This document shows, one piece after another, positions 12,893-49,616 of a stretch of 64,000 bases of DNA (position 1 is its first letter; every line of letters starts with the position of its first letter). The notes below the pieces were generated by a model. It did no database searches. It was not told the DNA's origin and worked only from the letters and a program-made list of their open reading frames with translations. This DNA comes from Takakia lepidozioides (taxonomy: Eukaryota > Plantae > Bryophyta). The stretch lies in NCBI GenBank assembly GCA_030704615.1, contig CM060733.1, positions 70,122,001-70,186,000 of the forward strand, read 5' to 3'. Made by a program: the position numbers and the translations under genes.

Positions 12893-12904
12893 CAACGACG
12901 CAAT

Positions 12905-13080
12905 GGCGTGAGCGCGCGAGCGTACGCTCACGCAGGAGTGACGTGGCGTGAGCGTACGCTCACGCCAGCTGACGTGGCGTGAGCCTGCACACACGCTGAC
13001 GTGGCGTGAGCGTCATGTCAGCATGCTGATGTGGCGGTAAATGATGACGTGGCACTGTCCGTCATCTGCCACGTCAGCAT
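12905..13080. repeat. Subterminal (gct)gacgtggcgtgagc repeats of element 1; similar copies at 24278-24390
   Basis: Several tandem ACGTGGCGTGAGC copies at both element ends. Confidence 0.8.
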
Positions 13081-13530
13081 TAACATGCGCCGCCTATAAC
13101 CGTGGATGGTCCTATGACCGTGGAATTAATGCAGGGAATCTTGCCTAAATAGAATCAAGACGAGCGTTGAGGCCTACAATTGCAGCATCCAACATTGTGC
13201 AATTACAAATGCTTGTTTCACTTTTACAATTACGAGGACGACAAAATATCCTCACAAAGTGTGCGCCATAAAGGCTGCCACGGGAAGACCTTCCTCCCTC
13301 CTCAAATAACAATGAGAGTTAGGATCATCTTCAAAAGATGATTGTAGTGCATAGCGACAGCAAGACATGTAGACTTCGAACGGTGCAATGACAAATGTGC
13401 ACTACCTAAAAGTTGTCACTCAGAGCTCACTCCGTATAGTTGGAGGCCATATCATTGCACAGCCGACGAATTGATGTGAATTACACATTTCAAATCATGG
13501 TCATCCACATACCACATTACATAGTTCATG

Positions 13531-16500
13531 CTACCCATGTGTTGTATCCCGCTGCAAAAGAGTATCGACCTCGTTGAAACTCATAGTGGCCTGGTGAATG
13601 AAGTTGTCACGTTTGGGATCGCAAACCATCCTCCTCAAAAATATGAAATACAAATGTTTGCAGGGTATGAATTTACCTCTCTTGCCCAAACTGGTTGATA
13701 GCATATTCACAAAATCAGGACATGTGCAATTGGGGAAATTGGAAACCGTGATGTCGTAGGTCCTGTCATGAACAGCAGATGTGGAAGTGATGATTGTGAA
13801 TACCCGACCATATCCTGGATCGGGTACTTCCGTGGTGCTTCCAACACGAGCTTGGAGCATTCTTGCGGACTCCACTTTGCCAAAGTGTTCAGCGGTTGGA
13901 GGGAAACGCCGAACGAGCTTTCCATCTCGTTTGGTTGGCCACAAGTCAGGATTTGCCGGGGGGACCCGGGAGGACGCAGAAGTAGTAGCACATGCATGGA
14001 GTTGGGGTTGTCTCGCAAGGGAAAAACCTGCCTCCTCCAGCATTTCAATCTCCTGAAAGCTGAGATGTGTTCCCACCTTCACGGGCCAAACGGTTGGAGG
14101 AGATGGCTTCATCACTACGGAAGGACGCACAGTTCCATGCACACATCTGGCACAATCATCTGCGCAGAACCAGAACTTGTGGTTCTTGGCTTCTGGTTGA
14201 CCGTATGGACGCATCAAGCCCGTGAAAGTCGGAGCAGGAGTTCGGGCACCACCTCTGGATATAGATGAAGTGCACTTCTCGAAATTAGTTGCCCTGATCG
14301 CTGTACATTTCACACGAGACCCTACACTTGTGCGTTCTATGTGCCAAACGTGGTCGGGGCATGCGGACTCAAGCACATCAAGGGGGTTGTTTCTCTCCTG
14401 CACCATTTCAGTGGCACTGTTTGATGCTGGAGCTTGCCGTCGTGTTGGAGGTTCCTCCACAATGGAGGTTCCGGACATGGAGCTGTCATGCAGGGGAACA
14501 CGAGGCTTCGAGAAGTTATCACGGTCTGCCCTGTGGGAATCTGAATCCGAACCAGGTGGAGTGTTCAATTTCCTCTTACAGGAGCCGAATCTCTCCTCCC
14601 CTTCAAGATGTGGAACTCTAGAAACAAGTGGCGTTCCCTGGGCATACATGCTCACCGCCCGTGCTATCTTGATTGGATCCCCAGATCTGTTTGCAGCACG
14701 CAACATCAACTCCCATTTGTCCGGACCCTTGCCACCAACCCCACCTCGTAAGAAATCACGGTATCGGGTTTGTTGTTGCAAGGCACGTATCAAATCATCT
14801 GTTGTTGCCACATACAAATCCCGACCTCGTTTCCCAGACTGCTGCAACCATGCGTTGTGCACAGTTTCTGCCAAATTGCAAGATGGCATGTCCGCCATTT
14901 CCTCAATGGACATGTTCTGCAAAGAGGATAACCACACTTCAGAACAGTGCACAGGAAACAACATAAAGAAAGCAATGAGTCAAAAATATGGAAAGCAAAT
15001 GTATGAATAAAGCATGAAATAGAAGCCTCGTACCATTGTCATGGCTGCTCCCCACTGTCTATACCGGAAGTGCCAAAACGCCAGCCAATCTTCCAATGCT
15101 CTCATACTCTCAAGTGATGCAGCTCCAGAAGAGAACCACCAGGCACGAATTGTCTGGAACAAAGTGTCCGCCTCCTTCATTGTTCTAGCATCTTTGTACT
15201 CTTTGCACAATTTACGGTGCTGAGTCTGCATCTCTGGTTTGATGTCCGACTTTGTATGTTTTTCCAGAGATTGTGTCCAATGGAATAGACATGTACGCTC
15301 TCTTCCTGGCATAGGCACTTTTGGGTCGCCCGATCCGAAGACAATACGAACAGCATTGAAATTTGCTTGAGCACTATCCGCCATGAAACCTGCGAAATTT
15401 GGAGATGGCAGCCCATGGCAGCCCATGACACGTATCAGGGAATTCCACATGAGCTTCTGGGATTCCGTATCCTCGGATTGCATGTCACAAACTGCAATTG
15501 TCATAACTCGTTGGTACACTGGATCGTAGACATGACAAGCCATTGTCGTCCAATCCTTCACTCGTTTCACATGATCAAACATAAGAAAACAGTTCTGCAA
15601 GTCCCCAGTCTTCTGCATCCGCTTCACGAGGCTAACCCCACTGCCCTCCCCAACAGTCGACATTTTGAAAAGAAAAACTTTGATGGCACCTTGACCTGGG
15701 AATACATTGTCCTGGATGTAATCGTACTTGCTCACTCGTTTCAATTCCAAAATATTGTCTATGTAGCCTCTGATCCCAGAGCCCATTCTCAATGCATTGA
15801 TCTGATGCCGAATGTTAGGTGAACTTAAAGTGGAGAAATGATCCATGACCAGGTCCAATGCTGCACCGTCAAGTTTAGTCCCCACAGAATCTCCTTCACT
15901 CAAAATATGGCTTTCCAAGAAGGACTTGCTTGCGCCAAGAGCAATTGCAGATGTTGTTGCGGATGGGTTTCTCCCGAACTCCTGTTTGATCAACCTCGAT
16001 ACTGTCTCAACACTCTCCCTGTAATCCCCCTTCGAGACAGGATGGTTATGGAATCCAAAATGCACACAAGCTCTCGTCATTGTATTCAAACGGTGGACAA
16101 CATAGTACATTCTTGCTCCGCAGAGCGCCAAGCAGGATGGCACAAGTTTGCAGAATTTGCAGACGAAAGTGTTTGCCGGTGGAGGGGCAGTCCCAGGCTG
16201 AAATGGATTTTCCGCCAGACCCTCCCATTCGCTTTGATTATGAACCCCAGACTGAAGAAAGTGTCTGCAATTCAAATTATCACACCTAAGGTGTCCATTG
16301 CAAACTGTCCTCCTGAAAACAAGCTTGTCATCATTCTGAATATTGGATGTTTTTGTTCTGCACCACGGGTGCCCGTCGTGTTTCTTGTCCATTCCATGCA
16401 TCATGATTGTTACACCTCCAACTCGCGGAGGAGGAGGCAGCTCGAATAGGATATCGCCATCAAAAGTCTCCGGCAAGAACTTCACAGGCACCTGCTTCAA

Positions 16501-17045
16501 AGATTCCCAATCAATTCCCCGCAACTCACTTTTGAATCCAGCCATTCCTCCCATCGCCCGCAATTTTGGAATGACACTACAAATCTCTTCTTCATCAGCT
16601 TCTCCAACCACAGTAGGAAGGACTGGATTTGGAATTTCACTTATGTCATCATCGGAAGAATCCGAAAGCTCAACGATTGGAGTGGAGGACGTCTGTTCTT
16701 TTTTCACCACCACCTCCCTCTTGTCTTCAACGACCGAAGCAGCAGTCCCGGGCGTCACATATGACCCAAGGGACTTTCGCCGAGGCTCTCCAAGTACTCT
16801 GTATCGACCAGGACGCACTCTCCACTGGCTGATATGAGCCGTCTCATCACGGTTTTGGAAAGAATATTTCACAACTTCCCTTTAAGATCGTACACCTCTT
16901 TCTCCAAAAAGATGGAGCCATTCTGCAGCTGAAAACGGGTAGCCAAGACATGTTCCAGAACAATTGCAAATCCATTGTCAAGGACTTCCTGGGAGAACGG
17001 CACTGGTTTGTCGTCAGAGAAGAACTCCGCTTCAGAGGAAGCCAT
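13531..17045 (-). CDS. MULE transposase (GCM-like Zn domain, DDE core, C-terminal SWIM); intron 14917-15033; single -1 frameshift near 16872
   Basis: FLMFDHVKRV (D), FMADSAQANFNAVRIVF (D), ERTCLFHW (CxxH), NLAETVHN (E) after splicing; SWIM CTCPDF...CKH; N-terminal CNGHLRC...CKFC...C...HNHP; ATG at 17045 (MASSEAEF) aligns with the element 2 N-terminus. Confidence 0.88.
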
Positions 17046-17900
17046 CTTCCTTCCTCGCGTACGTTTGTACCTTGCTATCGCAGATCTAGTGTAAATCGGT
17101 TTACTGATGTCTCCAGAACACAGTTGAAGAATGAGCAGAGAATATGGCGGAGGAAGCTCAGATAACGACTGTGCATATTATGTTATTCTTTCCAGATATG
17201 CAGCCGTCCATTTTAATTACTTTTCTTGTGGGCCCAGTGGTCAGAGTATCCCTAGGTGCAGTGTCGGCAGCTGTTAAACCGTTAACCAGAACCTCATCAA
17301 TAAACCCAATAACAAAGCCGACTTCCTGGAAGCATGCCACAGGATCTGAGAATGGGATTGCAGATTAAGTAAATGTATCTTTATACTACTACCAATGATC
17401 ATGCGCACCTGGAAAGTTCAAAATGTGAAACGAATGTGGGGTTGGCTAACAAGGATGACCGTGTATGATATTCCAAAATTTGTCATCAAACTCTCGTTCA
17501 TTTACATTTATTTGTGTAAGACTGTGCGCCAAGATTTCTGGGATTCGCTGTTATTTTTAAATATTGAAACCGTTCTAATAAAGAACACGCCGTTTTTTTT
17601 GGGCGACACACGTCAGACATCCATAACTGAATACGAACAGCTGTACACCAATTGCTGGCATGTGCACTAATAAGGGAACGACTATGTGTAACGGTCACGC
17701 GGGAGGGAATCCGATGCTTCTAGAGACACGCAAGAACGCAGGCAATCCCGCAAGAAATCGGGAGTCACTGCGTTTTTCTACTTTTCGCGCTTAGAGGGAG
17801 AGTGGTAGTCAAGCTGGAGAGGGTTCCTTCTAGAATACGAAAGAGAAGAAAGTCTCTTTATTTTACTTCCCTTAGAGAGAGACGCAGAGCAAGAGAGAAA

Positions 17901-20900
17901 ATGACGAGGCGTCGTTTGTTGGAGAACACAGGGCCAAGGCAGCAGGTGAACGCGGAGACTGATTCACAAGAGCAGACGGAGACTGAGGCAGCGGCTGTGA
18001 CACAGTCGGCGATAAGAGTGCGCCAGCCTGTGGAGGCAGAGATGATTCGCAGGGACACTGAAGAAGGTGGAAGCACGCGGAACGCCGAACCGGGAGAAGG
18101 TCAAGAAACCCTAGCGCAGACAGAAATTCCAGCAGATGTGAGAGGGAAGAGGAAAGCTGCAGAAGGGGATCAAATTTCAAAACCTAAGAAGGTGCCAGTA
18201 AGTTTTATCTAACTTACATTTCATTGTTGAAGATATGCGTAGAGATTGAGTGGAATGTCCCAGACAGGGATTGTCGCTACCGACAATCACAAAGGTGATT
18301 TGCTTTCTACTCCTCTGCGAAGGGTTTACAGCACAATGAGTTGGTGACTATCGGTACAGTCATTCACTGGTGTTCAGATCATACAGTCTGTCTGATTGCC
18401 TTTCAAGGAGTCCTTCCTCTTCCCTTCTTTAGCAGGAACTACTGAATTGCGAGCGTCGTTAACGCCATTCGATTCTCCTCATGAGATTTATGTACCTATG
18501 TGTTTGAAGAGAGAGTCTGCACTTACTATCCGCCCTAAACTACACTGAATGTCGTTGCCGCCAATCAGTTGCACATGTATGTCATTACACAACACCGATC
18601 CGGCAGGTCGTTATCTTTTGTGATTGTCGTTAACGCCGTTCGCTATCGCTCTCGCTTTTGTTTTGAATACGGCAGTATCAGCTTTGCTTGTGTAGATTGT
18701 GCTGAATTCTTTCACACCATTCATGGTGAGTTTCTTTGAGACAGAGTGATGGTCGTTACCGCCATTCACTATTTGCAAATCACTCAGTCAGAACTGAATG
18801 GCATCGTGCAGAAAACTGTGAGGTCGAAGCCTACAGGATCAGAGGGGAAAGGATCTGGAGATGGGGACGAGTCCGCAAAAAGCTCAGAGAATACAGATGA
18901 AGCAGATGAATCCGAAGTGCACTACCTTGACAAGGTGAAAGAACTCATGTCATTCCAGAAGGTAAACTCTCAGGAGGTTATAAGGGACATGCTCGTATCT
19001 GGAGGGCGTCTGGACATACCTCTGTGCCGGATGATATCAATGCCTGTTGTGCGTCCACCTCTTTCCCATGACATAACAAAATTGGAGAGTGATTTTGTGC
19101 ATGGATATAGACTTGGTGCACAAGTTTTTTATGTGTCACTGACGGATATAAATGGGAAAAGCACATTAGTGTCTCCAGAGATCAGTGATAACTGGGATGA
19201 GTGCTGGAAAGATGCCAATGAGGAGTTCGAGCTGGGCCTCATGATGGGAAAGAACACCCAGCAATTCTGCAACCACATGTTCTACGTCTGGGACGGCAAC
19301 CACCGATTGCTGGCATGGATGGGATACATTCAGAAACACCATTCGAAAGACAAAGACAAGCATGTTGCTGTGGAGGCAATGGTTTTGGATCCTGGAAACG
19401 ACATCGCTAGGCTTCTTACAGCTATGCACGACGTGAACAAGTAAGTCATCCAGGAGATTTCATTCCCTCTGTAGTGTCTTATTAATCCTCAAAAAACAGT
19501 GTTAAGGAATGCAATGTTTCCAATGTTTTTGCAGATCGACAGAGAAATCGCATGTGACAACAAGCTTGGTTCACACACTATTCCGAATTCAGAGGATTGG
19601 TCTGATGAAGCTGGATGATTTTCGGACAGTACTACCACCCAATATCATCAAGAAGTGCGAAACAGGAAGAGCTGCAGGCACTTGGTATTCTTTGACACGA
19701 GAGGCGTTTCTGGAGTACATGTATGCGGTAAGCCCGAGTCTGTACTCTGTTTACTTTTCGAATACATGTTTGTAGTCCCTTCGGAGCTAATCACTACTTG
19801 AATCAATGCAGCAAGAACTGGCAGAGGCAGCTGAGAAGGGAAAATCCGAATATTACCGCACTACACCAGAAGAACTAAGGACATCAAAGGGTGTGGAAGC
19901 TGCAATAAAGAAGGAGTTTGAAATGCGAAGAACCAAATTGATGTCAGCCTTCGGAAAGCAGCTTAGAATAGTAGATCCTGGACTTGGTCCTGAGTTCCTT
20001 CAGCAGATCAAAACACACTATGACAAGCATGTGCATCCGGAGATGCAGCAGGAGAAATTGCACCGGCTGGCCATATCGATGGTCGACCCACAAACAAAAA
20101 TAAGGTGGCTGGAGATATGGAACTCAGATCAAACAGTAAAGGACTTGAATCAGTTCCCAAAGAGCACCATACAGCCTGGCACAAAGGTGGAAGGAATCAG
20201 TGATTTGGTGTTTGATAACTGGCTCCACAAGGCTACATTTTGGAGTCAGGTGTGTATTCGAACATGCTGTTTTCTTCTCTTCAAGTATGTGATGAGTATC
20301 TTTTTGCAATTCTGACAAATATACTATTTGCAGCTCGAAAAGCGCGCCGTCATTGTGCTGGATCAGACTTTGAAGGACCTGAACATTTCGATTGTTTCCC
20401 CTCCCCAAATGTCATTGGAGGCATACATAAGGAAGTGGAGAGGTCTCACCTGGAGATACTGTTTTTTCCGGGAGTTCTCCAAAGATGGTAACATTTTACG
20501 GTCCAACGACTTTGACAGTCAGGTTGGAGGAGAGTGGGCCATGATGCGAGTTGTGTACAGGTGCAATGTCATACTTGAAACTCTACTGTTTTTTTGGGAA
20601 AAAATGTGGCTTCATATGGATTGCAATCTTAGATCCAGATTGAATGTCGTTGACGACATTCACTTCTTTGTCTGAGTCATTCTTAAGCGAGTATATGAAT
20701 TCACCTGGTTAGGATCTAAGGGTGCAATTATATTGTCCCTGATTAGAATTGATAATGTCCTTGAATGGCGTTGACGACATTCACATACGGAGTTGTTGAG
20801 AGGTCCTCAGAGTTATGTAAATTTTTGTAATGTCCATAGAGGTTACAGTGAGGGTTCCTCACTTCATTTTGCTGAATGTCAATGCAGACATTCAGTTGTT

Positions 20901-23377
20901 CTGCATTGTTTTTGCCTCTTGCGAGGAATCTGGAGGCTTGATAAGCTCTGTTATGAGAAATCCAAAGTGAATGTCGTTGACGACATTCACTGCTGTGTCT
21001 GTATTATTCAACAGCGACAAATTGAATTTACATGGATTGGGAGCTAAGTAATTGGTTTCTTTTTGGTATTTTTGTGAATGGCGTTGACGCCATTCACATA
21101 CAGTGATGTTGTGAGGTCCTCAGTGATATGTTCGTTATGAATGTGCATTGAGTTTTCCTGGAGGGTTCCTTACTCGATTTTTTGATTTCCATCCTGTGAT
21201 TTTGCTTCATTTAAGTAATAATTTGGCTTCATTAGTGAATGTCGTTGACGACATTCACTTCTATGTCTGTGTCATTCCTAAACGATAATTTGCATTCACC
21301 TGGATTAGGGTGTATTTACAGTATCATTGAATGGAATGTTCTGAATGGCGTTGACGACATTCATATCTGGAGCAGTAGTGTGGTCCTGAAAGGTCCTTGG
21401 AGCAGTTCTCAGAGCCATTTCAATCTATGTTTTTTTCATTCTGTTCTACTTGCATCTTACTCACTGAGCGCTTTTGTGGGTTGGGATTTATCTCCTTTTT
21501 TCAGGTACACGAAATATGTGCTTATGGAAGGAAATCACCTGAGCGGAATTCCCGACTATCTTGACATGTGGTCGGACCCTGCAAACGATCCAACCATGTA
21601 TACTGCAGGGATATTGAAGGACTGGAGTCCTTCTCACTTCAGAGACTGTGGGTGGTACCTTGACTGCCCACCTGAGCACACGACCTTTCAAGAACAGCAT
21701 ATGAAATACTTGAACAATAACGCTGAGATGCTGGCGCCTTTGACTGACGAAGAGTATCAACGAAACATAGCAACATTGGCTGCCAAGGAGCCTGATGCTC
21801 AGGGAACGCCGCAGAAGGGAAAGAAGGCGGGCCGCAAACCAAAAGACAAGGCTGTTGATGTCATAGCCATCTCACCAGCAAAGCCAAAGGACAAAGACAA
21901 GTCCAAAGAGAAGGAAAAGGACAAGGGGAAGGAGAATGAAAAGGAGATGGAGAGTGGGCAGGACTTTACTGCTGGAAGATATACCCGCACTCTTCAGTGC
22001 GTGTTCGATGCCAAGCCACACCCTTCCCGTTCTGATTCCGCAGGAGAGATGAAAATTGTTAATGAGGGTTGGCTTTCGATGATGCAGAGTCGAAAGAGAG
22101 GATACACTGGGGTGCCATCCCCTACCTGGGACAATATAATCTCATTCCTCAATCTGGTGAGAATTCCAGTTTCTTTCCTTTTTCTCTGAAAGTTTCGTTG
22201 GCAGTATTTCAGTCTCGTTCTTTGAAAACAATCTTGCCATCGTTCTTATAAAAAACATGTCTGTTGCAGGTGAGCACAGGTCCCACCTTCGTGTGCGGTG
22301 TGCAGAAAACTTATGCGGCCGACATTGTCATTCTCGACATCCCGGATGGCCAGGCTGTGCCAGAAGTTCTTCCAAAGGGCAAGACGCCAGGCTGGAACAA
22401 ATTCGAGGACAACTACTGGAGTTGGGTGTTCGGGTTCTGTAACAACTTCCTCTCTGATGCAGGGACACTTCTGCTTTTTCAGTCATGTGACAATGATAGT
22501 CGTCGGGCATTGGCATCATACCTCAAGTCTTCAGGGTTTGAAGTTTTGCGCACATGGAATTGTGTGAACAGCCTCTACCTTGTGAAAGGGGGTTTCCCTG
22601 GTCAGCTGGTATGCCGTCTCCCTTCTGCTTGTGCTTTGATCATGAGTTTCAATTTTCTCTGCAGCTCCACTCTAGTAGAATGTGTTATGATCGACACCGA
22701 TCATCACCGATTCATGATTTTTTTGTGTCAGAGTTCTGAATAGCCGATGTACACACTTCCACTATAGATTGTGTTTACCACACTAACCTGCTATCTTTGC
22801 CAGACGAGGATGTTCGAGGCGATCTGCCTGCGGAGGATTCGCACCTCAAAGACACCATCCTCCATCGCAGCTTTGAGATTTCTGACCAGGGTTGTTTCGT
22901 CAACCCCCCCTATGAGCCCCATGTCGATGACATTTTGTACAACTTCATGCAGTCCAGTCAGACTCTGAAGAGACCAGATGGCACTCCCTGGAGAGGTGCA
23001 AAGGAAAAGTCACCAGCGTTCATGCAAATACTGCTGGAGTCATGCAGCCACCGCTCTGCACGGGTGGTCGATCTTTCTGTGTCCACAGGTTCGTTTTTTC
23101 CCTTCCGAATTGGTTTTCTTTCAACAGTTTCATCTGCTTAAATCCCCCCCTCCAAACTGTTCATGTTCTCCTGTCTGGTGCAGGAGCAACTTACCACGCA
23201 TGCAAGGCAGGCGGAAGAAGCCTTTTTGGCATGGAGGGTGATTCTGACCTCTACAACACAGTGCTCCTCCCCCTTTTGTCTGGCTCCACTTCAGGCACAC
23301 AGACTGATCGGATTCAAATTCGAAATGATGACGATCCCGAAGATAAGCAGGTCGACAACGACTTTTCATGTGAGTAA
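17901..23377 (+). CDS. MULE partner gene: ParB/Srx-like N-terminal domain plus C-terminal beta-class N4/N6 DNA methyltransferase-like domain (about 9 exons, one apparent frameshift near 22840)
   Basis: GT-AG exons at ~17901-18197, 18812-19440, 19535-19727, 19812-20249, 20334-20560, 21505-22156, 22270-22608, 22804-23088, 23184-23377; FYVWDGNHRLLAW; ADIVILDIPDG...YWSWVFGFCNNFLSDAGTLLLF; WRGAKEKSPAFMQILLESCSHRSARVVDLSVSTGATYHACKAGGRSLFGMEGD. Confidence 0.75.
18269..18769. repeat. Five degenerate palindromes (GAWTGKCG-N4-CGMCAWTC type) in intron 1 of the partner gene
   Basis: Copies at ~18269, 18451, 18546, 18620, 18746. Confidence 0.7.
20641..21363. repeat. Six palindromes GTGAATG(T/G)CGT-TG-ACG(A/C)CATTCAC in intron 5 of the partner gene
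   Basis: Copies at 20641, 20762, 20967, 21073, 21234, 21342; arms up to 11-12 bp around a 2-nt centre; arranged as three ~300-bp units of two sites each. Confidence 0.9.
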
Positions 23378-24402
23378 GTGCTAAACCCTCTTTGGGAGTC
23401 ATACTCAATTTCTCGATAACATCAAAGTTACAGTAATAACTTTTTCAGGTTGTCTTTCAGGAAAGGCAGCGGTGGATCTTCAGGAGATACAGTCATTTCT
23501 GGCGAGTCTGTTTCGACAGCCCCCTTTCCAATTTTCTTCTTCCTGTTTATGCCGAGCAATGGCACTTCACGCGGCCGAGTCCCTATCCCCTGACTTTTTA
23601 GTGGCCAGCCGTAGGTGTATCCAGCGTGGATCCGGTGTTCTAAAATACTTAGACTTAGATGCAGAGGAATCGGGGATACATTGTACTGACTCTGAGTCAG
23701 ACTGAACTGTATTCTTTTAATATTCATTTTTCATATTATCTGGAAAACGTTGAATCCCCTTCCTCCACCGTAGTTGTTCCTTTAGAACAAATAATAATCA
23801 CAGAATCACCTTTCGTTTAAATTGCAATATGTATGAATCCATCTCACAAACCTCCCTGACTCTTCTCATATCCATTGTGCATTCATCTACACTGTATTCA
23901 TGCGTGCTCCATTCATGAATTTTTTCTTTGTACAACATCCATTGTACATTCATCCTCTGTACTCTTTAATCCACCCCACAAACCTTCCACACTCATTTCA
24001 TATACGAGGTGCATTCGTCAAAAGATTTGGTCATGCATCTTCCTGTCATGAATTTTTGTCATTGCTCAACATCCATTATACATTCATCCATTTTACTCTT
24101 ATCCATCCCTCATTCATCCATCTACATTCATTTTTCACACTCATCCATCTGTTTATCATCCAACTGTACATTCATCCATCCTTTATTCAATGCCTTTTAT
24201 TATGTCGTCCAGCTTGTTTCCGCGGTAAAGGGTGCCAATCCGCGGGAATACACTCCACTTCTTTCTGGGCGCGTGGTGACGCGCCTTCACGTGCGATGAC
24301 GTGGAGTGAGCCCCGTGACGTGGCATTTGCGCAAGGTGACGTGGCGTGAGCGCAGTTGCGCTCACGCACTCACGTGACCAGGCTCACGCCGAGGCATCCC
24401 TG

Positions 24403-36202: not shown

Positions 36203-36446
36203 CAACGACGCTACCGCGTAAGCGTGAGCTGACATGGCGCGAGCGTAGGGGACCAGCAGTTGATGTGGCGTGAGCGTGAGGGTGATGTGGCATGAGCGTG
36301 CTGACATGGCAGTGAACAACATGATGTGGCAGTCAACATGCCTACGTGGCAATCCACATGTCCACGTGGGATTCGGCCAACGTGGCGGACGCCATGTCAA
36401 CAGAAACATGTAGCGCCTATAGCCGAGGGACCTATTGCCATGGCAT

Positions 36447-39141
36447 TCATTCAGGAGATGCTGGCGTACTTTGTGAGAAACGTTGCTCCGCACTGGATAT
36501 TCCAGAGACAAACCTCTCATGCAATGGAACACGCGGAATGGAGAAGTTGTTCCTGTCCGCCCTGTATGAGTTTGCATCCGACCCAGGAGGGGTGTTCAAT
36601 TTCCGTTTACAGGACCCGAATCTCTCCTCGCCCTCCATATGGGGAACTGTGAACACCAGAGGAGTTCCCTCCGCACACATGCTGACATCTCTGGCAATCT
36701 TGTTTGGATCCCCCGATCTTTTTGCAGCTCGCAACATCAACTCAGACTTGTCAGGGCCTTTGCCACCAACGCCACCCCTCAAGAAATCGCGATATCTCGT
36801 TTGTTGCTGCAGAGCTTGGATGAGATCATCTGCCATCGCCAGATACAAATCCCGCCCCCGCTTTCCAGACTGCTGCAACCATGCATTGTGCACTGTCTCC
36901 GCTAGATCGCAAGAGGGCATGTCCGCCATCTCCTCAATTGACAAGTGCTGCAGAAAGGGAAAACACACATCAAAACAAACAGGTACACCCCACGACAGCA
37001 GACATGATTGGAAATGCATACAAAGCCAATGAGAATTCATGATCTGAAATTCAGGTACCGTTGTCATGCATGCTCCCCATCGTCTATACCGGAAGTGCCA
37101 AAATGCTAGCCAGTCTTCCAGCGCTCTCATACTGTCTTCTGATACAGCCCAGATGAGAACCACCAGGCACAAATTGACTGGAACAAAGTATTCGCCTCCG
37201 CCATGCTTTTGGCATCTTTGTACTGTTTGCATAGCTTAAGATGAATTGGCCGCATGTCCGGTTTGATGTCTGCCTTGGTATGTTTATCAAGGGACTGCAT
37301 CCAATGGAAAAGACATGTTCGCTCTCTTCCTGGCATTGGCACTTTTGGATCTCCTGAACCGAACACAATGTGAACAACATTGAAATTCACTTGAGCACTG
37401 TCGGTCATAAAACCAACAAAATTTGGGGATGGGACACCATGTGACATGCCTTTTCACATGCCTGTCACATGGTTGTGCCTGTCCATTCACAATGCATGGG
37501 ACACCATGTGACATGTCCCATGGCATCCCATCACGCGAATGTGACATCTCCATATAAGCTGCTGCGACTCCGCATCCTCCGATTGCATGTCACACACTGC
37601 AATTGACATGACTCGCTGGTAGAAAGGATCGTAAACATGACACGCCATTGTTGTCCAGTTTTTCACTCGTTTGACGTGATCAAACATAAGGAAACAGTTC
37701 TGCAGGTCGCCATCCTTTTGCATGCGCTTGACAAGACTCACTCCGCTGCCCTCCCCGGCTGTCGACATTTTGAAATTGTACACTTTGTTGGATCCCTGAC
37801 CTGGGAACACACTATCTTGAATGTAGTCGTACATGCTCCGAGACTTCAATTCCAAAATGTTATCAATATACCCTCTATTTGCAGAGCCCATCCTCAATGC
37901 ATTCACCTGGTTTCTAATGTTCGGTGAGCTCAAGGTTGAGAGGTGATCCATAACATTGTCCAAGGCATGCCCGTCCAGCTTCCTGCACACAGAGTCCCCT
38001 ACACAGAATATGGCTTTCCAGGAAACTCTTGCTTGCTCCAAGCACAATTGCGGAGGTGGTGGCTGTTGGATTGCTCTCATACTCCTGTCTTATCAACTTC
38101 GATATTGTTTGAACACTCTCCCTGCAATCTCCCTTCGCCACAGGATGGTTGTGGAATCCGAAATGTACGCAGGCTCTAGTCATGTTTTTCAAACGGTGAA
38201 CAACATAGTACTTGCGTGCTGCACACACCGCCAGACAGGAAGGCGCTTGTTTGCAGAACTTGCAAACGAAAGTGTTGGAGCTTGGAGGTGCTTCACCGGG
38301 TTTGAATGGATTTTTGTCGACACCCTCCCACTCGCACTGGTTGTGAACCTTCAACCACTAGAAATGCCTACAATTCAAATTCTCGCACATCAGGTGCCCA
38401 TTGCACAGGCTTCTCCGGAAGACGAGGTTGTCATGATTTTGAATATTGGATGTTTTCGTTCTGCACCACGGGTGTCCATCTCCTCTCTTGTCCATTCCCT
38501 GCATGAGGCTCGTGACGGGTCCATCCCGCCCAGGTGGAGGTAGCTCGACCCCATCATAAGCATCCGGCAGGAACTCCACACACTCAATAGGGACAGTCTC
38601 CCAGTCAATCCCCCGCAATTCACTCTGGAAACCGGGCATTCCTCCCATTGACTTCAGTTTAGGAATGACACTGATGAGGTGTGTCACTTGCGGCTTGACG
38701 ACCGGCGGTGTTTGCACATAATTTGGGTTGCTGGGAACGTCCTCGGAGGAGGAGTCTGAGAGCTCAACTATTGGGGTGGAAGTAGTGGTCTCCGTCTTCA
38801 TGACGATATTCCTTTTCTCTTGAGCAACAGAACCAGCTGTTCCCGGGGAGACATACGAACCAGCGGACTGCCACCGAGGAGCTCCGACGACCCTATATCT
38901 CCCTGGAGGCACTCTCCACTGACTCACAAGAGAATTTTCATCCGGTTTCTGAAATGAGTACTTGATCAACTTCCCATCGACCTCGTAGACCTCTCTTTCG
39001 AGGAAAACAGTGCCAATCTGGTACTCGAAACGCGTTGCCAGGAGATGTTCCTGCGCAATTGCGTAACCATTGGAATCGGCATCCTTCGAGAAAGATATAG
39101 GCTTCTCCACAGAGTCAAACTCCGCTTCAGACGAACCCATG
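36447..39141 (-). pseudogene. MULE transposase of element 2 (stops, frameshifts, lacks SWIM end)
   Basis: FLMFDHVKRV, FMTDSAQ, ERTCLFHW, DLAETVHN; same intron position as element 1. Confidence 0.9.
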
Positions 39142-39759
39142 GTGAAAGACGAATGATTCCGAGCTAGACAGAGCTCGAAAGTGGAGAGGCCCACGACTTC
39201 CGTGGATTTCATTCATCAATACCTGATAGACAGTTAAAGAGTCCTTGAAGAACAGTTGTGTAAACAGTTGTTAAAATAGATGTCAAGCAGTTATGTGCCT
39301 GCCCACACCAAGTGCAAAAGACGGCTGAGCCGAAAAATCTGGGATACAATGCCTTTGTAAAGTTTTTAGGCACGTGGGCCCAAACATTGCATTCATAGCA
39401 CGGCTGCCAGAATGGGTGCAGAACCAATGAGAAGTTCTGAACCGCCGCAATGCACAAAATCAACTTGCACATGTATGGACATCGAATCCAGGGTATGGCC
39501 ATACAGACACAAGAGGTGACGGCGGCCAGTGCCAAATGCACAAATGTTCCTGTGCTACGTGGACACGTATGAGGTGAACCCAAGCGTTGCCCCGCCGGCA
39601 TCCCCTCGCACAACGTCTCTGGGCCCAGCAGATCCTCATTTTCAAGCTGGAGACTAGTAGGAGACTGAGTTCCCACCGTGAGAGTGGTAGGCATAGAAGG
39701 CAGTCTTTTTTTTTCACCTCAACGCGAGAGAGGAAGAGGGCGAGAGAGAGATTGAGAGG

Positions 39760-41575
39760 TCGCAAGCTGGATTTGACGCTTCAAGAGATAGCAGAGGAGA
39801 GTTCGGCCCTGGAAACAGAACACATGACTGTGCAGGACCAGGCGGTCGGGGCTGCCCAAGGAGGGGATGAAACACCATCAGAGAGCGACACAGAGGATAT
39901 GGACATAGAGGAGCCCGATGCTGTTGATAAGGAATCCACGCCAAAGGGGAAGAGTGTTGTTGAGAAGGAGGCGACTCTGAAGAGGAAGCAGGCTGTGCAG
40001 ACGGTTAGTGCCGCTGCATCCAAGGCATCAGGGAGTGCTCCCCCGAAAGGACCACAGGTGATGATCTTCCTTCCTCTCTTTTGGTGCAGATTGAAGGGCA
40101 TGGCAATTGCGTGCGCTGACGCACGCAATTTCATGCCCTGCATTCTTGTCTTTTTCCACTTCAGAGATGAGTGAAGAGATCAAGGTGTCACATATGGGTG
40201 TTCTGCTAGTTTTTCCTTAACTCCTTTCTTTTGTTCACTGAACAAGAAAGGGAGGCTGTGTTTGGAGCAGGACCTTCAGAGCACCTCCAGAAAATTGTGT
40301 GCGTCAACGCACGCAATTTCTGGAGGTGCTCTGAAAGCCATGTTATGCACTCACAACCTCTAACTGCAGCCATGAACAGAGAGAAATGGGCTACACGATA
40401 TCAGCTACAACAAGCTCTGCATGTTCCTAAGACACCCCCACAAATTGCGTGCGTCAACGCACTCAATTTCGGAGGGTGCTATGATGGACATCCAGAGCTC
40501 TAAACAGATCTGAATGCCTGAATGTGTGAGCACAATTGTGATCGTATTAAATCCACGAGAGACACTTCAGAGCACCTACCGAAATTGCGTGCGTTGACGC
40601 ACGCAATTTCTGGGGTAGTTCTGAAGGACATTCTCCTGAGTATGGGTCTCTCATTTCCGAGATCAATGCACATGCATATCTTCAACTTGAAGAGAGGATG
40701 TACAGTCTGTAGAGGCTTTAGAAATGCGCGCGTCAACGCACTCTATTTGTGACATTGCTTTTACATGGAGAATTTTTCTTTTTGAATGCAGGCGAAGAAA
40801 AGGAGAGGTGTTCCCCTGGAGCAGGATGAAGACGAGGAGCACAAACTTGTTGTTGTTGAGGAGGAAGACGATGGCAGGCCATACCAGGACAGGGCAAAAG
40901 ATCTGTTGTCCTTCTCGAAAGTGAACTCAGCCCAAGTCATCAAGGCCATGGGCGTTCCTGGGGGGAAATTAATGATCCCACTTTGCAGGTTGATTTCCAT
41001 GCCATTCGTCCGACCAGCACTCATGAATGACATTGCAAAGCTGGAACAGGATTTTTGCCATGGGTACATAGAGGGTCAATATGTGTTTTACGTTTCGTTA
41101 GGCGACGCCAACGGCAGGGAAGTTCTAGTGGATGAGACCATTGTTGGAGACTGGGATCCAATTTGGCGACGTATCAACGACGAGTTTGAATCAATTATTT
41201 GCAAGATGCTTGTTACACAGCCTTTCTCAGGCAAGATGTTCCATGTCTGGGATGGCAACCACCGATTGCTTGCCTGGCAGAACATGATATCGAGGTATCA
41301 TAGCACTGAGGAGGAGTGGCACTACTGTGTGGCCTCCATGGTGCTGGATCCCAAGGGAAACATCACTGTACTCTTGACAGCAATGCATGACGTGAACAAG
41401 TAAGTGTCTTTCCTAAAATAACCTGATTATTTCCCTCATGTATGTGTTCGGAAATCATATCAGACATGTGATGACATACCACTGCTTGTGGCAGGGGAAC
41501 TGAAACCGCCCATGTTACAACGAACCTGGTACACACCCTATTCAGGATCCAGAATATTGGCCAAATGCCCCTCCT
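39760..41575 (+). pseudogene. Truncated ParB-like partner gene of element 2
   Basis: IPLCRLISMPFVRP...FYVSLGD...MFHVWDGNHRLLAW...LLTAMHDVN, homologous to 18812-19440; intron 1 ~40058-40791; truncated in exon 3. Confidence 0.85.
40105..40748. repeat. Five palindromes AAATTGCGTGCGT-(TG/CA)-ACGCACGCAATTT in intron 1 of the element 2 partner gene
   Basis: Copies at ~40105, 40292 (extended ~60-bp hairpin 40275-40335), 40442, 40581, 40721. Confidence 0.9.
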
Positions 41576-42974: not shown

Positions 42975-45900
42975 TGTCGTTGAATCCGAAGTTATTTTGC
43001 AGGGAAGTAGAGTGAGGATGAAAGATGGGCAAGAGTATTCTATAGATTCACCCCTGTTCTTGATGTTAAGAGCAGAAGGAGGAAGGATACTTAGAAGTGT
43101 GTGTAGCCTGTCATTAGAATCTCATCTCAAGGGACAATGGAAGAATGTTGGTCACTGCCCATGGAGGTGTTATAGTCGGTCCAGACTATAACAGTACATG
43201 GGTTGTCTTGACGTCCACTAATGTTTTCCGTCTTCTGACCCACTTTGACATTGCAGGTATGTTTACTGTGTTGGTGCGCTGAGGTGCGTCCGAGGAACTT
43301 GCCCATTCTTCCTTAGGGAGGGCACGCACAATGAAATCCATTGGATGGGACATTCCGATGCACAGTTCAAACCACAAAGCCAGGTGCCCCCCAACACGTT
43401 CATATGCGCAGTGTGCAATCATGCACCCACATGCATGCAGACTTGCCCTGCAAAAATGTTCTATGTCACAGGTCCACCAACTATGACGAGAGCAGCCGTG
43501 CATGTTGGCAATCATTCACACCAGTCTGCACCTGGAGCATGTCGGGAAGCAGCCGCAAAAGCAAAAAGTGTAATTGCAGATGAGATCCACAGGTCACCCT
43601 CTGCCGGGCCCAAATCAGTCCAACTATCTGTAGCCCAATCCATTGTCATGGACAAGGTACTGTCTCTAGGTGTAACAGAGAGATGGAAGCTTGACGATGA
43701 GCAGTTCGAGCAGCTCATGGAAGAGGTCGATGCAGTGGGGAAATGTGGTGTTCGTTACGAGACACAAAAGAAAAAACTCGAAATGGGGATCGGGAACGAT
43801 CTACAAGCTTTGCTGAAACTGAAAGTGCGGCTATGACTATATCCACGGGAGCCGGTTCCTAGGTCAAGGGAGTGTGGATGACAGATGCTTCCTTTTTAAA
43901 ATGTCAACTGTTGGCAAAGGCTGTGGAGTGCATCTGGTGGACATGATGCGGCCCGGGGGGGGAGGGGACTGGGATCGAGCTGGATTATGTTCGACAACGT
44001 CAAGCGAATAAACGGCTGGAGCACAATGGCGTGTCACGTGTACCATCCGAACTATCACAAAATTATGACGATCGCAATTTGCAAAATGAAATCAGAAGAT
44101 ACAGCATCACAGATGATCATGTAGGAGTGCATCAACGATCAAATGCTGCGGGCGGGCAAGGGCCGACCACATTTTCGAGGATTCATGGCAGACAATGCAA
44201 ATGCGAATTGGGCAGCTGTTCGTAATGTTTATGGAGAGGGGGAACCAATGCCCGATCAGGAGAGGACATGTGGATTCCATCGGGGTCAGAGCCTCGTCAA
44301 GTGGACCAAGAAGTACATCTGCAAACACCTCCAAAAGAAACATATTGATCTTTGTACGAAGTGGAGAGCAACAAACATTGAGGCTGAAGCAGAGGTGTCA
44401 TTTTCTGGCCATCTATGCATGGTGGTTGTCTTCCGGTGCCGCTCGAGATGACAATGTCCCTGGGCTCTTGGGTTGGCTCTCGTGGTGGACATACCGATAC
44501 TTCTCTCCTTCATAGGTCTTCAAATATGCAATGTATCAGTCCGCTCACGTGAGCAATTTTTTTTCTTAATAGTTTGCACCGACTATTGCAACCACTGTAG
44601 CGTATATATGCATTCTTTTGCATTTATTTGGGTCAAAGATATGGGACCGCTCACATGGGAACAACATGGCAATTATAGTCTGCACCGACTATATCATCGC
44701 AAAACGACAACATCTGTTCGGGGCCTTCCACGTTTAAAATGAAATGTGGGGGCTCGCATGTACTTTGCTAAAAGATGGGTAACATTTCTTTATAGTCTGC
44801 ACTGACTAGTTATATCATTGCAGTGGGGCATTTACCTCTGATTGCTATTCTTCACCCTTTCATATCTGATTATGGTCTGCACCGACCACAGTGTGGGCCC
44901 AATGATGAATTTGCGAATGCCAGTAGTCGCTGCCGATTATAACTCCGGCTGACCCATAATGTTCGTCTAATGGCATCTATTCCAAGGGGTAGCCGTGTCG
45001 TTTCTCTACCTCGTGTCCCAATTTGCACATAAAACTTGTTTTGATCTTACGCGGACGTTAGGGTCTGGAGCTAGAGGATGAGCAATGCCAAATGTGAATA
45101 TGTCTGAGTCTGTACATGCGAGCTAGCAGGCCGGGAGCGGAGTGTTGAAGGTCGACCTGTATACAGCCACCCGAAATGACATGACAAGGGCAATACTGCA
45201 ATCACCCTCCTACAACAATTATCTGAAGGGTGGGCAAAGGGTTCAAGTCCCGACCGCGAACAATTACTGGCACGAGCCACAGCGCGGTTGTCCGATCTTG
45301 CTAAAATGACAGAAGTGGTGAGAAGTTTCATCGATGGCATGCCACTTCATGGTAGAAATCCAGGCCTCGAAGGTGATCTTCTCACTCGAACAACAAAGCG
45401 GAAAATTGTTCTTGGCAACCTACAAGACGAGGAATACGTTCATTCTTGGAGGCCTGACTTAAATCTCCGAACGACCCCCAGACGACAGGAAGGTGCCGGT
45501 GGGCCAAGACCGAGTACAAGTACTGTGGACATACATGTAGAGACCTTGGAGGATGAACTTCCAATGCAAAACAGAAAACCCGTTTTGGGGACCACAGTAT
45601 CCATGGCATGTTGGCACATTGCTCGTACTTCGAACACTTCACGAGGGAAGTGCTGGGCAGTTTGGTCTGACAGTGCGAAGCCATGCAAAGAGGACATCCG
45701 GCCACTCTAGAGTTTGGGTGTTCCAGCACCCAGATATGTTGGGCGCCACCATCCACCGACCCTTGCGAAACCTAAGATGATGGAAATGTGGCACTACCCA
45801 ACAGACATCATCTACTGTGTCCGTGGTGAATCGGGGCGATATGTGCTCGATAGACCTGATGTTACCAACATCTGGCCTGTCATGGTTGGGACCAATCTAA

Positions 45901-46400
45901 ATCAAGAGGAGGTTGATGCCTTGACCAAAGCACGATTTCGACTTGTTCCCACAGACGACATGACCCCTGCCGAGGGTGAGTGGGACAGTGAAGAGGATGA
46001 TACCAATGACCTAGATCCAAACACATATGCCACGAAGAGGTGGAAGAAAGTATATCGCCGGAAGAAATTGTCAGCACTAGCCCGGAAGAAGATCGAGCTA
46101 GGAGAATCTTTGAAAGCAACTGTCCAATCAGTCAAAGATGTTCCCCGCCCTGGAATTGGACGTGTATACACACTTTGCACACCGGGATCAGCCAAAGCAG
46201 GGGAGGTGTACAATGTTTGCATCTCCAGAAATCCGGAGTGCACATGCCCAGACTTTGACAAAATGAAACTTCGAAATGATCTTACACCCATTGCAAACAT
46301 ATATACTATATTATGTTGCGCAGATTGAAGATGCGGAATGACTCGGAGGAGATAAACCATCCAATGCTCACCATAAATGAGGTGAAGGCAATGTTGGTCC
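42975..46400 (+). pseudogene. MULE transposase of a more distant family member (element 3), decayed
   Basis: FICAVCNHAPTCMQTCPAKMFYV...HVGNHSH; IMFDNVKRINGWSTMACHVY; FRGFMADNANANWAAVRNVYG...ERTCGFH; SWIM PECTCPDF...CKH; intron ~44500-45060. Confidence 0.85.
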
Positions 46401-48872
46401 GCGACTCTTGTCCTTGGTTCCCATAGTGAGCCTATGGATTTTTTTGAAGGATATCCTAATTCTGCGTGGTCTCTCCAGATCGACCACTTTCTGACGCCAC
46501 ATTTTGTAGTCTACACTTTCATCCACAAGTATGCTTACATGCCCGAGGAGGAGCTCACGTGAGCAGATCAGCGCTTTTCTGTTGCTAATCATTTTCCCCT
46601 AAATGTGTGTTTTGGCGCATCTTCAGCCTTTCAGACAATCGCAATCCTTGTAGTCTGTGCCGACTTATAGATGCGGAGGTGTAGTTGTGAAATGTGCACA
46701 ATTTTCCATTCAGTTGACCGGTGCCGCTCACATGAGCAGACATGTCATTGGAAACTTTTTGACTAACTTGCTCATATTAAATGCTTCCAACACTTGCTTC
46801 AATCACTGCACGAAAATATGTTAGTTAGCGGATATTCGAACACATCATACATGCTCTCCATTGTAGTCTGTGCCGACTATAAAGTGTACGATGTGTACGT
46901 GCCCACTGTTCTATACTTGTAGTTTGTGCCGACTACAAAATGGTACCAGCTGTTGGTGAGCACTATTACATCGTTGTAGTCTGTGCCGACTACAAAGTGT
47001 GCGATCTCCATCTACACATTACTCAGTTTTCTTCACCAGGGACCTCACGTGAGCGGTGGTATGACTGTTGAGTCTAGGGGTGAGTTGCCGCACATTGCCT
47101 GCACATAGGCAAGTCACTTTGTGTACACCATGTGGCAAATGATTGTTGAGCTCATATACACAAGAGTATTACGTGAGCATAGCGCTTTGGACTTAGATCC
47201 TGAATGTCTGAGACTCATACAAGAAAACCTTGTTGTTTCCCGATGTTTAAATGTTTATACAATTGGAATCCTTATAGTCTGTGGCAACTATAAAATGTAT
47301 GGCGTGGAGGTGCACATATGATGCATTTGTAGAACCGGAGCTGACATAAGGTCATTTGGCACTGCTGACTTTCATATCTGACTTGCTTTTGTTTGAGCAG
47401 GAAATGCCTGTTGTTCGGGAGTCTGTCGCATCCTCATTCAACTCGCATCCTTTTAGTCTGTGCCGACTATAAAGCATACGACCTAGAGGTGCAATATATT
47501 CCAAGTTGTTCGTGTCGGGAGCTCACATGACCGAACTTATGACTGCTCACTTTGGATAACTTGCCTATCGGACATGCTTCGTAGACTTGCGTAACTTTGT
47601 GTATGGACTGATTGTTGTTGGCCCATATTTCCCATTCTCGTACACTTCAAATCATTGTAGTCTGTGCCGACTATAAAGTGGGCGTCCTCTAGGTGAACAA
47701 TATTCGAGTTAGTATTGGAACAAAACTCGGCGCCGACTCCCACATGACTCTCTAAACCCTAAGTTCCGTTCTGGTAGCAGAGCTGTCAGTAACGTTTTCA
47801 ATGATCTCTTCTACCTGCCAGTTCAAGTCGTCGAAGACTACATTTCAACCAAAATCACTAAGCGTGGAGAAGTAATGCGGCTCACAAGTCAAAAAGAAGA
47901 GTTTCCCTCTTTTTGTACTCAAACTTTTATGAACGACACAATGGTTCATTGCTGGACTTGCAAGTCCCAGTGAAGTTTACAAACACATCTGTACTACGCA
48001 TATGAGATTTGCGATTGTACACTTTAACTTAGCTTAAGCAAAACGCAAAGCCTATGTTAGCTTAGTTGAACCTTTGTCGGCAGAGAGGGCAAGAGGCATT
48101 GAGCTGCATCCAAGTATCAATGCACTCACTGTGGAAACAATGCAAACAACCGGTGAGGGTGTGAACAGAGTCGCCGGCTTGTGGAGACTCCATGCAAATA
48201 CCGCAGGGTTCCTGTGCAGGTGTATCCGCAGGAAGAATAGCCTGAGGGAAAAAAGTAGAAATCAATTCAATAGACGCACCGATCCATTGCAAATCCTCGA
48301 CTTCATCCTGGACCTCACCGTCTTCTTCCTTATCCTTATCCTCGTCCTCCCAGTCTGAGTACTTTGCAGGTAGATCCTCCACATCGTCTGAGCTTCCTTC
48401 TTCCTCTGAATCGTCTGCAGCGCATGTCCCGTCTACATTTCCACTCTGTAGACACGCAATCTCTGCCTCTGCTTCATTTCGTGCAATGCAGTAAGAGATG
48501 TCATCTGGAGCCACGACCAACAGTTCTCCTCGGGCCTGTCCTCTTCTCGCCCTCCGCTGCATTAGTCCTGCCCAATACAAGAACAGGTGTATTGTCCATT
48601 GTGTGTGCACCACAAAAGATGAAGAAACGTGGTGGCGCTACAAACGCGGGAGTGACCTACTCTCGTAGAACACCCCAGTGACCCGACAAATGTTACTGAT
48701 GGCAGGAGGTGTTGGACTGCCGACACGTGGCCGGCAGCCAAACACATTGGACACGAAATCTCTTCCGCATTTTCGTTAGTTGGATGATCGGAAATCGCCT
48801 GCCCTTCTCCGGCCATGTTATAGGCGGCGCCGACTTCCTGATCCCTGAAAGTGTGTAGTCTGCGGCAACTAC
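44568..48872. repeat. About 13 quasi-palindromes TAGTC-(TGTGCC/TGCACC)-GACTA in element 3, interspersed with GCTCACGTGAGC
   Basis: Copies at ~44568, 44674, 44791, 44871, 44923, 46650, 46863, 46919, 46976, 47272, 47453, 47657, 48855. Confidence 0.85.
48062..48613 (-). CDS. RING-H2 (C3H2C3) zinc-finger protein, probable element 3 cargo; true 5' end uncertain
   Basis: CGICMES...LTGCLHCFHSECIDTWMQLNASCPLCR; acidic linker; flanked on both sides by the element 3 palindrome. Confidence 0.7.
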   Translation of the reverse strand: MVHTQWTIHLFLYWAGLMQRRARRGQARGELLVVAPDDISYCIARNEAEAEIACLQSGNVDGTCAADDSEEEGSSDDVEDLPAKYSDWEDEDKDKEEDGEVQDEVEDLQWIGASIELISTFFPQAILPADTPAQEPCGICMESPQAGDSVHTLTGCLHCFHSECIDTWMQLNASCPLCRQRFN

Positions 48873-49616
48873 ATTTTCTCATTTTCATGGAACTTGTTGG
48901 AATTTTCCCCAAAAAAAAAAAAAAAAACAGCATCCACGGTTATACGGTTATAGAAGAGGGGTCTATTCCCGCGGTTGCTATTTTTATTGCACTATTGAGT
49001 TGTAATCGGTACCAACTACCTAGGTTCGGTGACTGCCAAGCCTGGTTTGTCATGCCCGATCTTAAGGTTAACAAATGCCAAATCAATGTCAAATTTCGAG
49101 AATTTTCCTAAAATTGTGCTATGCTCATGGTATTTTTAGCTCATGCAACATACACACCCATGATTGCAGCTTAGTGGCACACTGCCATGTGTACTCATCC
49201 ACTATCTCACATTTGACACCCAACCCGGTAACACACCAAAATGCTTTTGCAGTTCAATTTCCAAACCATCCCAATCCTCATGTGGATACATATGTGCTTC
49301 ATTAGAAACATACCAGAAATGTCAAAAGTTGACCATGATAGCATGACTGTTTTCAAATTAGCCTGTCTTAAAAATGGCAAGTGCATGCTACAGAGAAGGC
49401 CTACTAATTATATGCTTCAAAAAAACAAATTCTGATCAATCAAACTTCCCAACGGGCACCCCCAAGGCGTCCCCAAGCAAAGTTTCGAAGGAATTCATGG
49501 GCAGTACCTTTAGATATCCCCTTAGACACATCACTAATGAGCTCAAACAATCCAAAAGACCAGCTTGCTGAATCTCTTGAGAGAGATCAATCAAATTTTT
49601 CCAACAGGAGTTAGCC

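Follow-up and report, generated by a model that had tools for sequence, protein, structure and literature searches.

The 64,000-nt stretch of the Takakia lepidozioides genome analysed here (assembly GCA_030704615.1, contig CM060733.1, positions 70,122,001 to 70,186,000 of the forward strand; hereafter, the window) contains a Mutator-like DNA transposon (Mutator-like element, MULE), called element A, with two divergently oriented genes, one coding for a transposase and the other for an accessory protein that joins a ParB-like domain to a methyltransferase fold. Two related elements, B and C, lie downstream of it (Table 1). The subject of this report is an array of 24-bp palindromes located in the introns of the accessory gene of element A, and its putative role in recognition of the element by its own product.

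When the best palindrome copy (20967–20990) was searched for throughout the window, with up to 7 mismatches allowed in 24, 13 sites were found, none of them outside introns 1 and 5, the longest ones of the accessory gene (about 600 and 944 nt; the remaining seven introns comprise 79–195 nt). Intron 1 contains six sites (18267, 18344, 18449, 18545, 18620, and 18746) with 5–7 mismatches each, and intron 5 seven (20640, 20761, 20872, 20967, 21074, 21235, and 21341) with 0–3 mismatches, except for the copy at 20872, which has 6. An earlier sequence-only reading of this DNA had reported 11 copies confined to the two longest introns, five degenerate ones in the first and six near-perfect ones in the second. 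Their location, confinement, and uneven quality hold, but the copies at 18344 and 20872 had been overlooked, and the latter does not fit the near-perfect class. Fifty dinucleotide shuffles gave on average 0.54 sites and at most 2 at the same threshold, and none of 100 shuffles had any site at 3 mismatches. With a weight matrix derived from all 13, the copies themselves score 19–36 bits, and the next-best site of the window scores 7.6 bits. The spacing of the sites displays no clear helical phasing pattern. Intron 5 is composed of three diverged units of about 270–330 bp with two motifs per unit, and these six copies descend from a single unit duplicated twice. Intron 7 contains a single palindrome (22684–22707) with a CG-N4-CG core and other arms, scoring 5.9 bits with the matrix of element A.

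The palindrome was claimed to be better conserved than the DNA between its copies, and this claim holds. Between the units of intron 5 the motifs are identical in 45 of 48 positions in every pair, whereas the flanks are identical in 146 of 219, 129 of 219, and 108 of 208 positions (52–67%; Fisher p of 7e-5 to 1e-8 against the motifs); in intron 1 the motifs are 71% alike and their flanks 26%. Motifs make up 168 bases of the 944-bp intron, and across family copies only one of the 40 variable sites listed, out of 50 in total, falls within them, where 7.1 would be expected (p 0.004); this single site is the outermost base of the motif. Positions 3, 4, and 9 of the half-site are invariant in all 26 halves, the near-invariant bases being G-A at 3–4, G at 7, and C-G at 9–10. 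The core CpGs are retained in 23 of 26 cases, the observed/expected CpG ratio of the introns being 0.31–0.55. Position 8 is T or G, and its two halves are unlike and unpaired in 7 of the 13 copies, with T/T in five and G/G in one; the copy at 21074, whose GGC/GCC arms had been taken for a compensatory variant, is this G/G copy and does not speak for compensation. Of all departures in the arms, 24 affect one side only, 6 are symmetric, and 4 affect both sides without pairing. Selection acts on the sequence of the palindromes, not on their pairing.

This distinction bears on the possibility that the palindromes function as pre-mRNA hairpins, in splicing control or as a source of small RNA, or as DNA cruciforms. 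Four intron-5 copies do fold well (z of −2.4 to −4.2), as do the copies in element B, with stems of about 30 bp and z of −4 to −12, and in one B copy different outer arms still pair. Nevertheless, 7 of the 13 copies of element A have no folding advantage over shuffles (z above −1.2), one-sided changes prevail over symmetric ones, positions are invariant where pairing is absent, the loop of the B copies is found in both orientations, and the 12.1 kb searched gave no Rfam match at E 1, all of which makes a hairpin or cruciform function improbable. The presence of the loop in both orientations, together with pairing that is not kept, fits recognition of double-stranded DNA.

Element B belongs to a sister family and contains in its intron 1 a palindrome different from that of element A, with 13–15 mismatches to the best copy of the latter and the central 8 bp in common. 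The two copies of intron 1 are otherwise unalignable. The transposase genes of both elements show 73–77% DNA identity (segments 61–79% identical), and the ParB exons 56% protein identity. Moreover, the subterminal motifs are common to A and B, whereas the intronic palindromes differ. Sites that are intronic, repeated, and orientation-free could be intronic enhancers to which a transcription or chromatin factor of the host is recruited, but with the arms wholly different in two families of one genome and the geometry kept, an element-encoded reader explains the pattern more easily, and we hold the involvement of a host factor to be very improbable.

Related families were found in metagenome contigs, where an alignment scan confirmed 226 loci, 80 of which were kept (a first scan, with a single-sequence query, had confirmed 0 of 89 candidates). 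For the 48 loci in which 600 bp or more precede the ParB exon, an array was defined as at least three copies of a palindrome, exceeding each of 20 shuffles. Thirty of these loci have such an array ahead of the exon, representing 21 of 32 clusters at 90% protein identity, while an equally long stretch from the ParB exon onwards, available in 45 loci, never contained more than two copies. The top motif of 12 of the 21 array clusters has the core CG-N4-CG, or its deaminated TG/CA form, with arms of its own. A guided scan for CG-N4-CG, with seven near-duplicate loci dropped and A and B included, gave 56 non-coding against 13 coding sites in DNA that is 47% coding (p 8e-7; the pattern was taken from the same data, hence the test is not independent). 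The motif is found again further downstream, between coding segments, in L018, L030, L048, L052, and L059, similarly to element A. The motif types follow the clades of the ParB tree, and the motif of element A itself, at 6 mismatches, was found in only 1 of the 80 loci. In 13 long loci, no transposase of another type was seen next to the ParB-like gene, and in four of them the transposase is of the same MULE type. Where loci are rich in AT, TG or CA mostly stands in place of the core CpGs, which methylation followed by decay would produce. The array in L001 (1–200) has a CG-N2-CG core and a spacing of 32–35 bp, unlike most families, and a frame in the otherwise plant-like locus L069 (4060–4440) matches bacterial solute-binding families (PF13343, E 4e-8).

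Families that are about 40% identical in protein share a core geometry at one position of the gene, and this should be set against a neutral origin of the arrays, by which they would be products of tandem duplication with the motif homogenised by template switching at quasi-palindromes or by gene conversion. Besides the triplication of intron 5, the variable number of sites among copies accords with such an origin: 171 bp of intron 1 (18207–18377) are missing from some DNA contigs, and in others 597 bp of intron 5 are missing or its unit is repeated. Template switching can perfect palindromes, and it would account for the copy at 21074 and for the long arms in element B. In intron 1, however, the motifs are alike in spite of unrelated flanks and unpaired halves, and hypermutable CpGs are kept. 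A neutral origin is thus quite improbable.

The product of exon 2, which comprises the ParB-like domain, has a confident AlphaFold model (its predicted local distance difference test score, pLDDT, is given in Table 1). In a Foldseek search with it, the top nine rows were Noc, PadC, and ParB proteins (prob 0.91–0.99, E 0.014–0.06), and superposition on PadC gave a VIA Z of 7.3 with a root-mean-square deviation of 3.0 over 95 aligned residues; the model also resembles KorB and sulfiredoxin. The canonical form of the ParB motif is G-E-R-R. In 90 aligned sequences, the G-x-x-R-x-x-A motif has G in 84, N in 89, H in 84, and R in 75 sequences, and the A is nearly invariant. G-x-x-R-x-x-A is the ParB signature (PMC13495010, accessible passages). 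The gene is predicted to code for a ParB/sulfiredoxin N-terminal fold with this motif, in agreement with the sequence-only reading. Helices follow the ParB-like domain, but the pLDDT is below 50 across most of residues 500–1147, where fold searches returned only generic helices; the long helix 459–504 resembles only generic coiled coils, and the C-terminus has a methyltransferase fold. A sequence search of solved structures returned nothing but a ribosomal protein, which is unrelated. Element A is filled by its two genes, and none of its 12 long frames matched a ParA-type Pfam family at E 0.1. The term parS-like, applied earlier to the palindromes, is apt only in so far as they form a palindrome array, and the fold searches identified no helix-turn-helix that could read them.

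The accessory gene aligns in tblastn with residues 220–1131 of Ceratodon purpureus M758_1G295400 (P0001), in which PF01555, a methylase family, scores 30.4 bits against a cut-off of 26.7. PF01555 matches 10 of the 126 members of the protein family; single exons from the window gave no Pfam match, but they align to P0001. No family other than the ParB fold and PF01555 occurs in more than 3 of the 126 members among the matches listed, which sets the product apart from VANC, a protein of Arabidopsis transposons, without direct alignment. Motif IV precedes motif I, as is the order in the beta class. The catalytic motif of this class has the form [DNS]-P-P-[YFW], and the motif binding S-adenosylmethionine the form F-x-G-x-G. 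In most relatives, motif IV is D-x-P-[E/D/T/S/R], with D-T-P-F in P0001 and P0167 and D-Q-P-F in one fragment, and motif I is of the D-L-S-x-S-T-G type in most of 19 sequences and D-F-A-G-G-W-G in three, recognisable but degenerate. Of the ParB–methyltransferase architecture claimed for this gene, the methyltransferase-like fold stands too, with both motifs IV and I degenerate. Judging by these residues, catalysis should not be assumed, and a non-catalytic, base-binding role would be at least as likely.

The arrays, the selection on their sequence, the kept CpGs, the family-specific arms, and the ParB-like fold together make binding of the element's own protein the best reading. On balance, the palindromes are probably binding sites for a dimer of the product of the accessory gene, by means of which each family would mark or shield its own copies. 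A two-fold symmetric protein would read both half-sites in double-stranded DNA. Tandem duplication would alter the number of sites, with arms and protein drifting together, as in the case of VANC, so that each family could address its own copies. The window copy, being frameshifted, would depend on other copies. The self-recognition sites proposed in the sequence-only reading do behave as selected, family-specific protein sites in non-coding DNA, like VANC targets; as to their reader, we infer that it would be the ParB-like protein rather than the transposase.

The transposase is the other candidate, since the palindromes could be internal sites for its GCM-like or SWIM zinc fingers, serving transpososome assembly or self-activation. 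In element C, a third palindrome with a similar geometry occurs at 15 sites, which are found in the intron of the transposase gene, downstream of it, and close to the end of the element. Element C lacks the upstream half, where A and B keep the accessory gene, so its arrays without a ParB gene are suggestive only. In Arabidopsis, the AtMu1 transposase alone binds its cognate motifs and activates its own family, though its binding peaks at the terminal repeats (10.64898/2026.08.24.746577, accessible passages). The arrays of A, B, and the metagenome locus L046 are situated in or immediately upstream of exon 2 of the ParB-like gene, neither in the transposase gene nor at the ends, and A and B have a separate subterminal motif set in common while their intronic motifs differ. 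Internal transposase sites appear rather unlikely.

The activity of AtMu1 and the arrays of element C, given that no ParB-like sequence was seen in the window outside A and B, nevertheless count against binding by the accessory protein, as do several further points. Its fold matches score only modestly (Foldseek E 0.014; VIA Z 7.3–8.0), and sulfiredoxin, SerK, and SbnI, which are not known to read DNA sites, score almost equally, so the fold match does not separate ParB from them. No helix-turn-helix or other DNA-reading domain was matched in the fold searches, the model being poor beyond residue 500, and the aromatic residue of motif IV is present, among the sequences compared, only in the Ceratodon P0001 cluster and the one D-Q-P-F fragment. 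Among the metagenome families, 11 of the 32 clusters showed no array, 9 of the 21 array clusters have a top motif outside the CG-N4-CG-type core, and two palindrome types occur upstream of the ParB exon in L046 (7414–8590), L056, L065, L073, L076, L071, L080, and L004; linkage alone would make the motif types follow the ParB tree, without co-evolution. The depletion of variable sites in the intron-5 motifs would vanish if all ten other variable sites fell in motifs, and the count may be affected by mapping of repeated motifs to a wrong unit. Finally, the B motifs extend to strong hairpins at 40274–40337 and 40564–40627 (stems of about 30 bp, z to −12), and for these stems a hairpin or template-switching component is conceivable.

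A more elaborate scheme is that of a eukaryotic ParB-type clamp carried by bryophyte MULEs, in which a nucleotide-gated dimer would load at the intronic palindromes, spread over the 11-kb element, and, by way of its methyltransferase fold, either write N4-methylcytosine or N6-methyladenine or shield cytosines from 5-methylcytosine deposition by the host, the arms being a family barcode and the central CpGs a methylation sensor or target. Such a module might then be widespread in eukaryotic mobile DNA as a means of self-recognition, and DUF3723, known as a family of conserved cargo proteins of fungal Starships (10.1101/2021.12.13.472469, accessible passages), could be one instance. The clamp with its extensions is an unlikely scheme. 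A language model finds DUF3723 to be a look-alike of P0001 residues 215–600 (the ParB-like and helical regions) with scores of 0.95–0.97, which is a lead only; no PF12520 was found in the 126 family members among the matches listed (best 25 of 45 families), and the literature search found no paper joining DUF3723 with ParB. DUF3723 may be a ParB-like protein.

Several systems related to that of element A have been described, and the comparisons below draw on the accessible passages of the papers cited. In the red alga Bostrychia, a Plavaka/Mutator cassette, PAG2-PAG3, comprises a ParB-like gene and adjacent inverted-repeat arrays, and the protein was proposed to bind its own transposon and to modify it (10.1101/2025.02.11.637652); these arrays beside a ParB-domain gene are a precedent for reading by the element's own protein. 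Both systems have a ParB-like N-terminal domain, inverted-repeat arrays in the same element, and a PF01555 methylase gene. In PAG, however, ParB is fused to a putative 2-oxoglutarate oxygenase and the methylase, in the other gene, to SET, the arrays are located beside the gene, and the carrier is mainly EnSpm/Plavaka, whereas in element A the ParB and methylase folds are in one protein, the arrays are in introns, and the carrier is a land-plant MULE. An accessory gene of Sola1-1_Ec32 of the brown alga Ectocarpus codes for a 1104-aa protein with ParB-like and N4C/N6A methyltransferase parts, on the strand opposite the transposase, and self-binding was proposed here too (PMC12477816). By this description its architecture and orientation resemble those of element A, but the carrier is a Sola1 element and no palindrome array is mentioned in the passages, while A is a MULE with a 9-bp target duplication.

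For VANDAL and VANC of Arabidopsis, binding and demethylation have been demonstrated experimentally (PMC5735166, PMC10398659). These elements, too, are MULEs with an accessory gene, and their motifs, arisen by tandem duplication in introns or other non-coding parts, differ among related families. The VANC motifs are of 8–9 nt, and the string "palindrom" is absent from the main text of PMC5735166, whereas element A has palindromes and a predicted ParB plus methylase fold. Bacterial ParB–parS shares with element A the N-terminal fold, the G-x-x-R-x-x-A motif, and clustered palindromes (PMC13495010), but element A has no identified helix-turn-helix or C-terminal dimerisation domain, no ParA was seen, its motif is G-N-H-R, and its sites are of 22–26 bp with family-specific arms. 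The arrays thus resemble VANC targets in layout, and the system is neither a ParB–parS partition system nor VANC. In Marchantia, DN4MT1 host methyltransferases, specific for N4-methylcytosine, have an intact TSPPY and act on CG sites (10.1101/2021.02.12.428880). They share with element A a beta-class amino-methyltransferase fold in a bryophyte, but they are host genes, whereas in A this fold resides on a transposon, is fused to a ParB-like domain, and has D-x-P-[D/E/T/S]. Dam-type methylases fused to ParB-HTH (helix-turn-helix) have also been described in chlorophytes and chytrids (PMC4738411).

Binding of their own transposon by ParB-domain accessory genes has, therefore, already been proposed in print for red and brown algal transposons. 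The literature search, with subscription papers mostly outside its reach, found none on such bryophyte elements or on family-specific intronic palindromes, and the land-plant MULE setting and the family-specific code are apparently new against the literature searched. The algal proposals come without a defined site in the passages, while here the site is defined to the base. Moreover, one genome contains two families whose sites differ, and these, together with about 20 others, form natural protein–site pairs, in which self-recognition is directly testable. If true, sequence-specific self-control of transposons would have a second route in plants, derived from bacteria, and a set of orthogonal DNA-targeting pairs of 22–26 bp would be at hand; if the protein also slides, a ParB clamp would operate in chromatin.

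Table 1. Features of elements A, B, and C in the window
Feature	Position	Strand	Remarks
Element A, 11,510-bp Mutator-like DNA transposon	12893..24402	.	inside decayed pentatricopeptide repeat (PPR) array
Left subterminal repeats	12893..13140	.	GTGAGC / AYGTGGC motifs; palindromes at 12908 and 12944; also in B
MULE-like transposase gene	13531..17177	-	open frames 16869–17177, 14980–16881, 13531–14979; CxxH, SWIM finger
Accessory gene, ten exons	17901..23705	+	acidic N-terminus, ParB-like domain, helical region, amino-methyltransferase fold
Intron 1	18198..18787	+	acceptor 18787 or 18811; splice sites predicted from GT/AG signals and frame
ParB-like domain (exon 2)	18929..19438	+	G-N-H-R-L-L-A; AlphaFold pLDDT 93.9
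Intron 5	20561..21504	+	absent, with GT..AG borders, from a contig of run X8 (guessed to be RNA)
Methyltransferase-fold exons 7–9	22270..23369	+	motif IV D-I-P-D, motif I D-L-S-V-S-T-G, both degenerate
Right subterminal repeats	24200..24402	.	palindrome at 24344
Element B, truncated sister family	36203..41573	.	divergent gene layout like A
Intron 1 of element B	about 40058–40791		five copies of a different palindrome: 40106, 40294, 40444, 40584, 40723
Element C	43171..49020	.	distant transposase (+, about 36% identity), RING-H2 frame, third palindrome

Element A is bordered by a 9-bp target duplication (12884–12892 and 24403–24411, 8 of 9 positions equal), and its ends form inverted repeats alike in 15 of 21 positions. 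Its transposase matches, with an ESM Atlas score of 0.95, a cluster in which 61% of members have PF10551 (MULE); the SWIM finger was found at E 0.007, below the curated cut-off. This match, the CxxH and SWIM motifs, the degenerate ends, and the target duplication bear out the earlier assignment of the element to MULEs, and a Sola-like identity is ruled out by the duplication together with the MULE match. The left subterminal motifs have a density of about 23 per kb, compared with 0.2–0.4 per kb within A, and match the end of B in 68–81%; they are likely to be transposase sites.

Exons 1–7 of the accessory gene are open (925 codons), but a frame test found a frame break near 22865, where other family copies have one extra base, and a stop at 22966 after it; the gene is broken, by a frameshift, in the methyltransferase part of the window copy. 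The family is a multi-copy one, since run X1 gave 27,209 contigs on 6 kb, more than 12,000 of them at less than 99% identity. The named matches of the accessory protein comprise only Ceratodon and Riccia. In an X8 contig, intron 6 (22157–22305) has its acceptor 36 nt downstream of the predicted one, both being in frame. Neither X8 nor X11, the two runs guessed to be RNA, gave coverage of intron 1.

The host of the insertion is a tandem array of decayed PPR-like repeats with a period of about 300 bp (9267–12890 and 24403–25400), so PPR-repeat DNA lies on both flanks of element A, and further pieces are located near 57700 and 63000. The RING-H2 frame of element C (48062–48637, minus strand) matches PF13639 at E 1e-11, and another palindromic motif interspersed in C, besides the third palindrome, is akin to the subterminal one of A and B. 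Other palindromes or small palindromic tandem arrays of the window, at 34652–34765, 54466/54725, 55591, 55678, 57210, 59236, and 63621–63763, likely stem from further repeat families.

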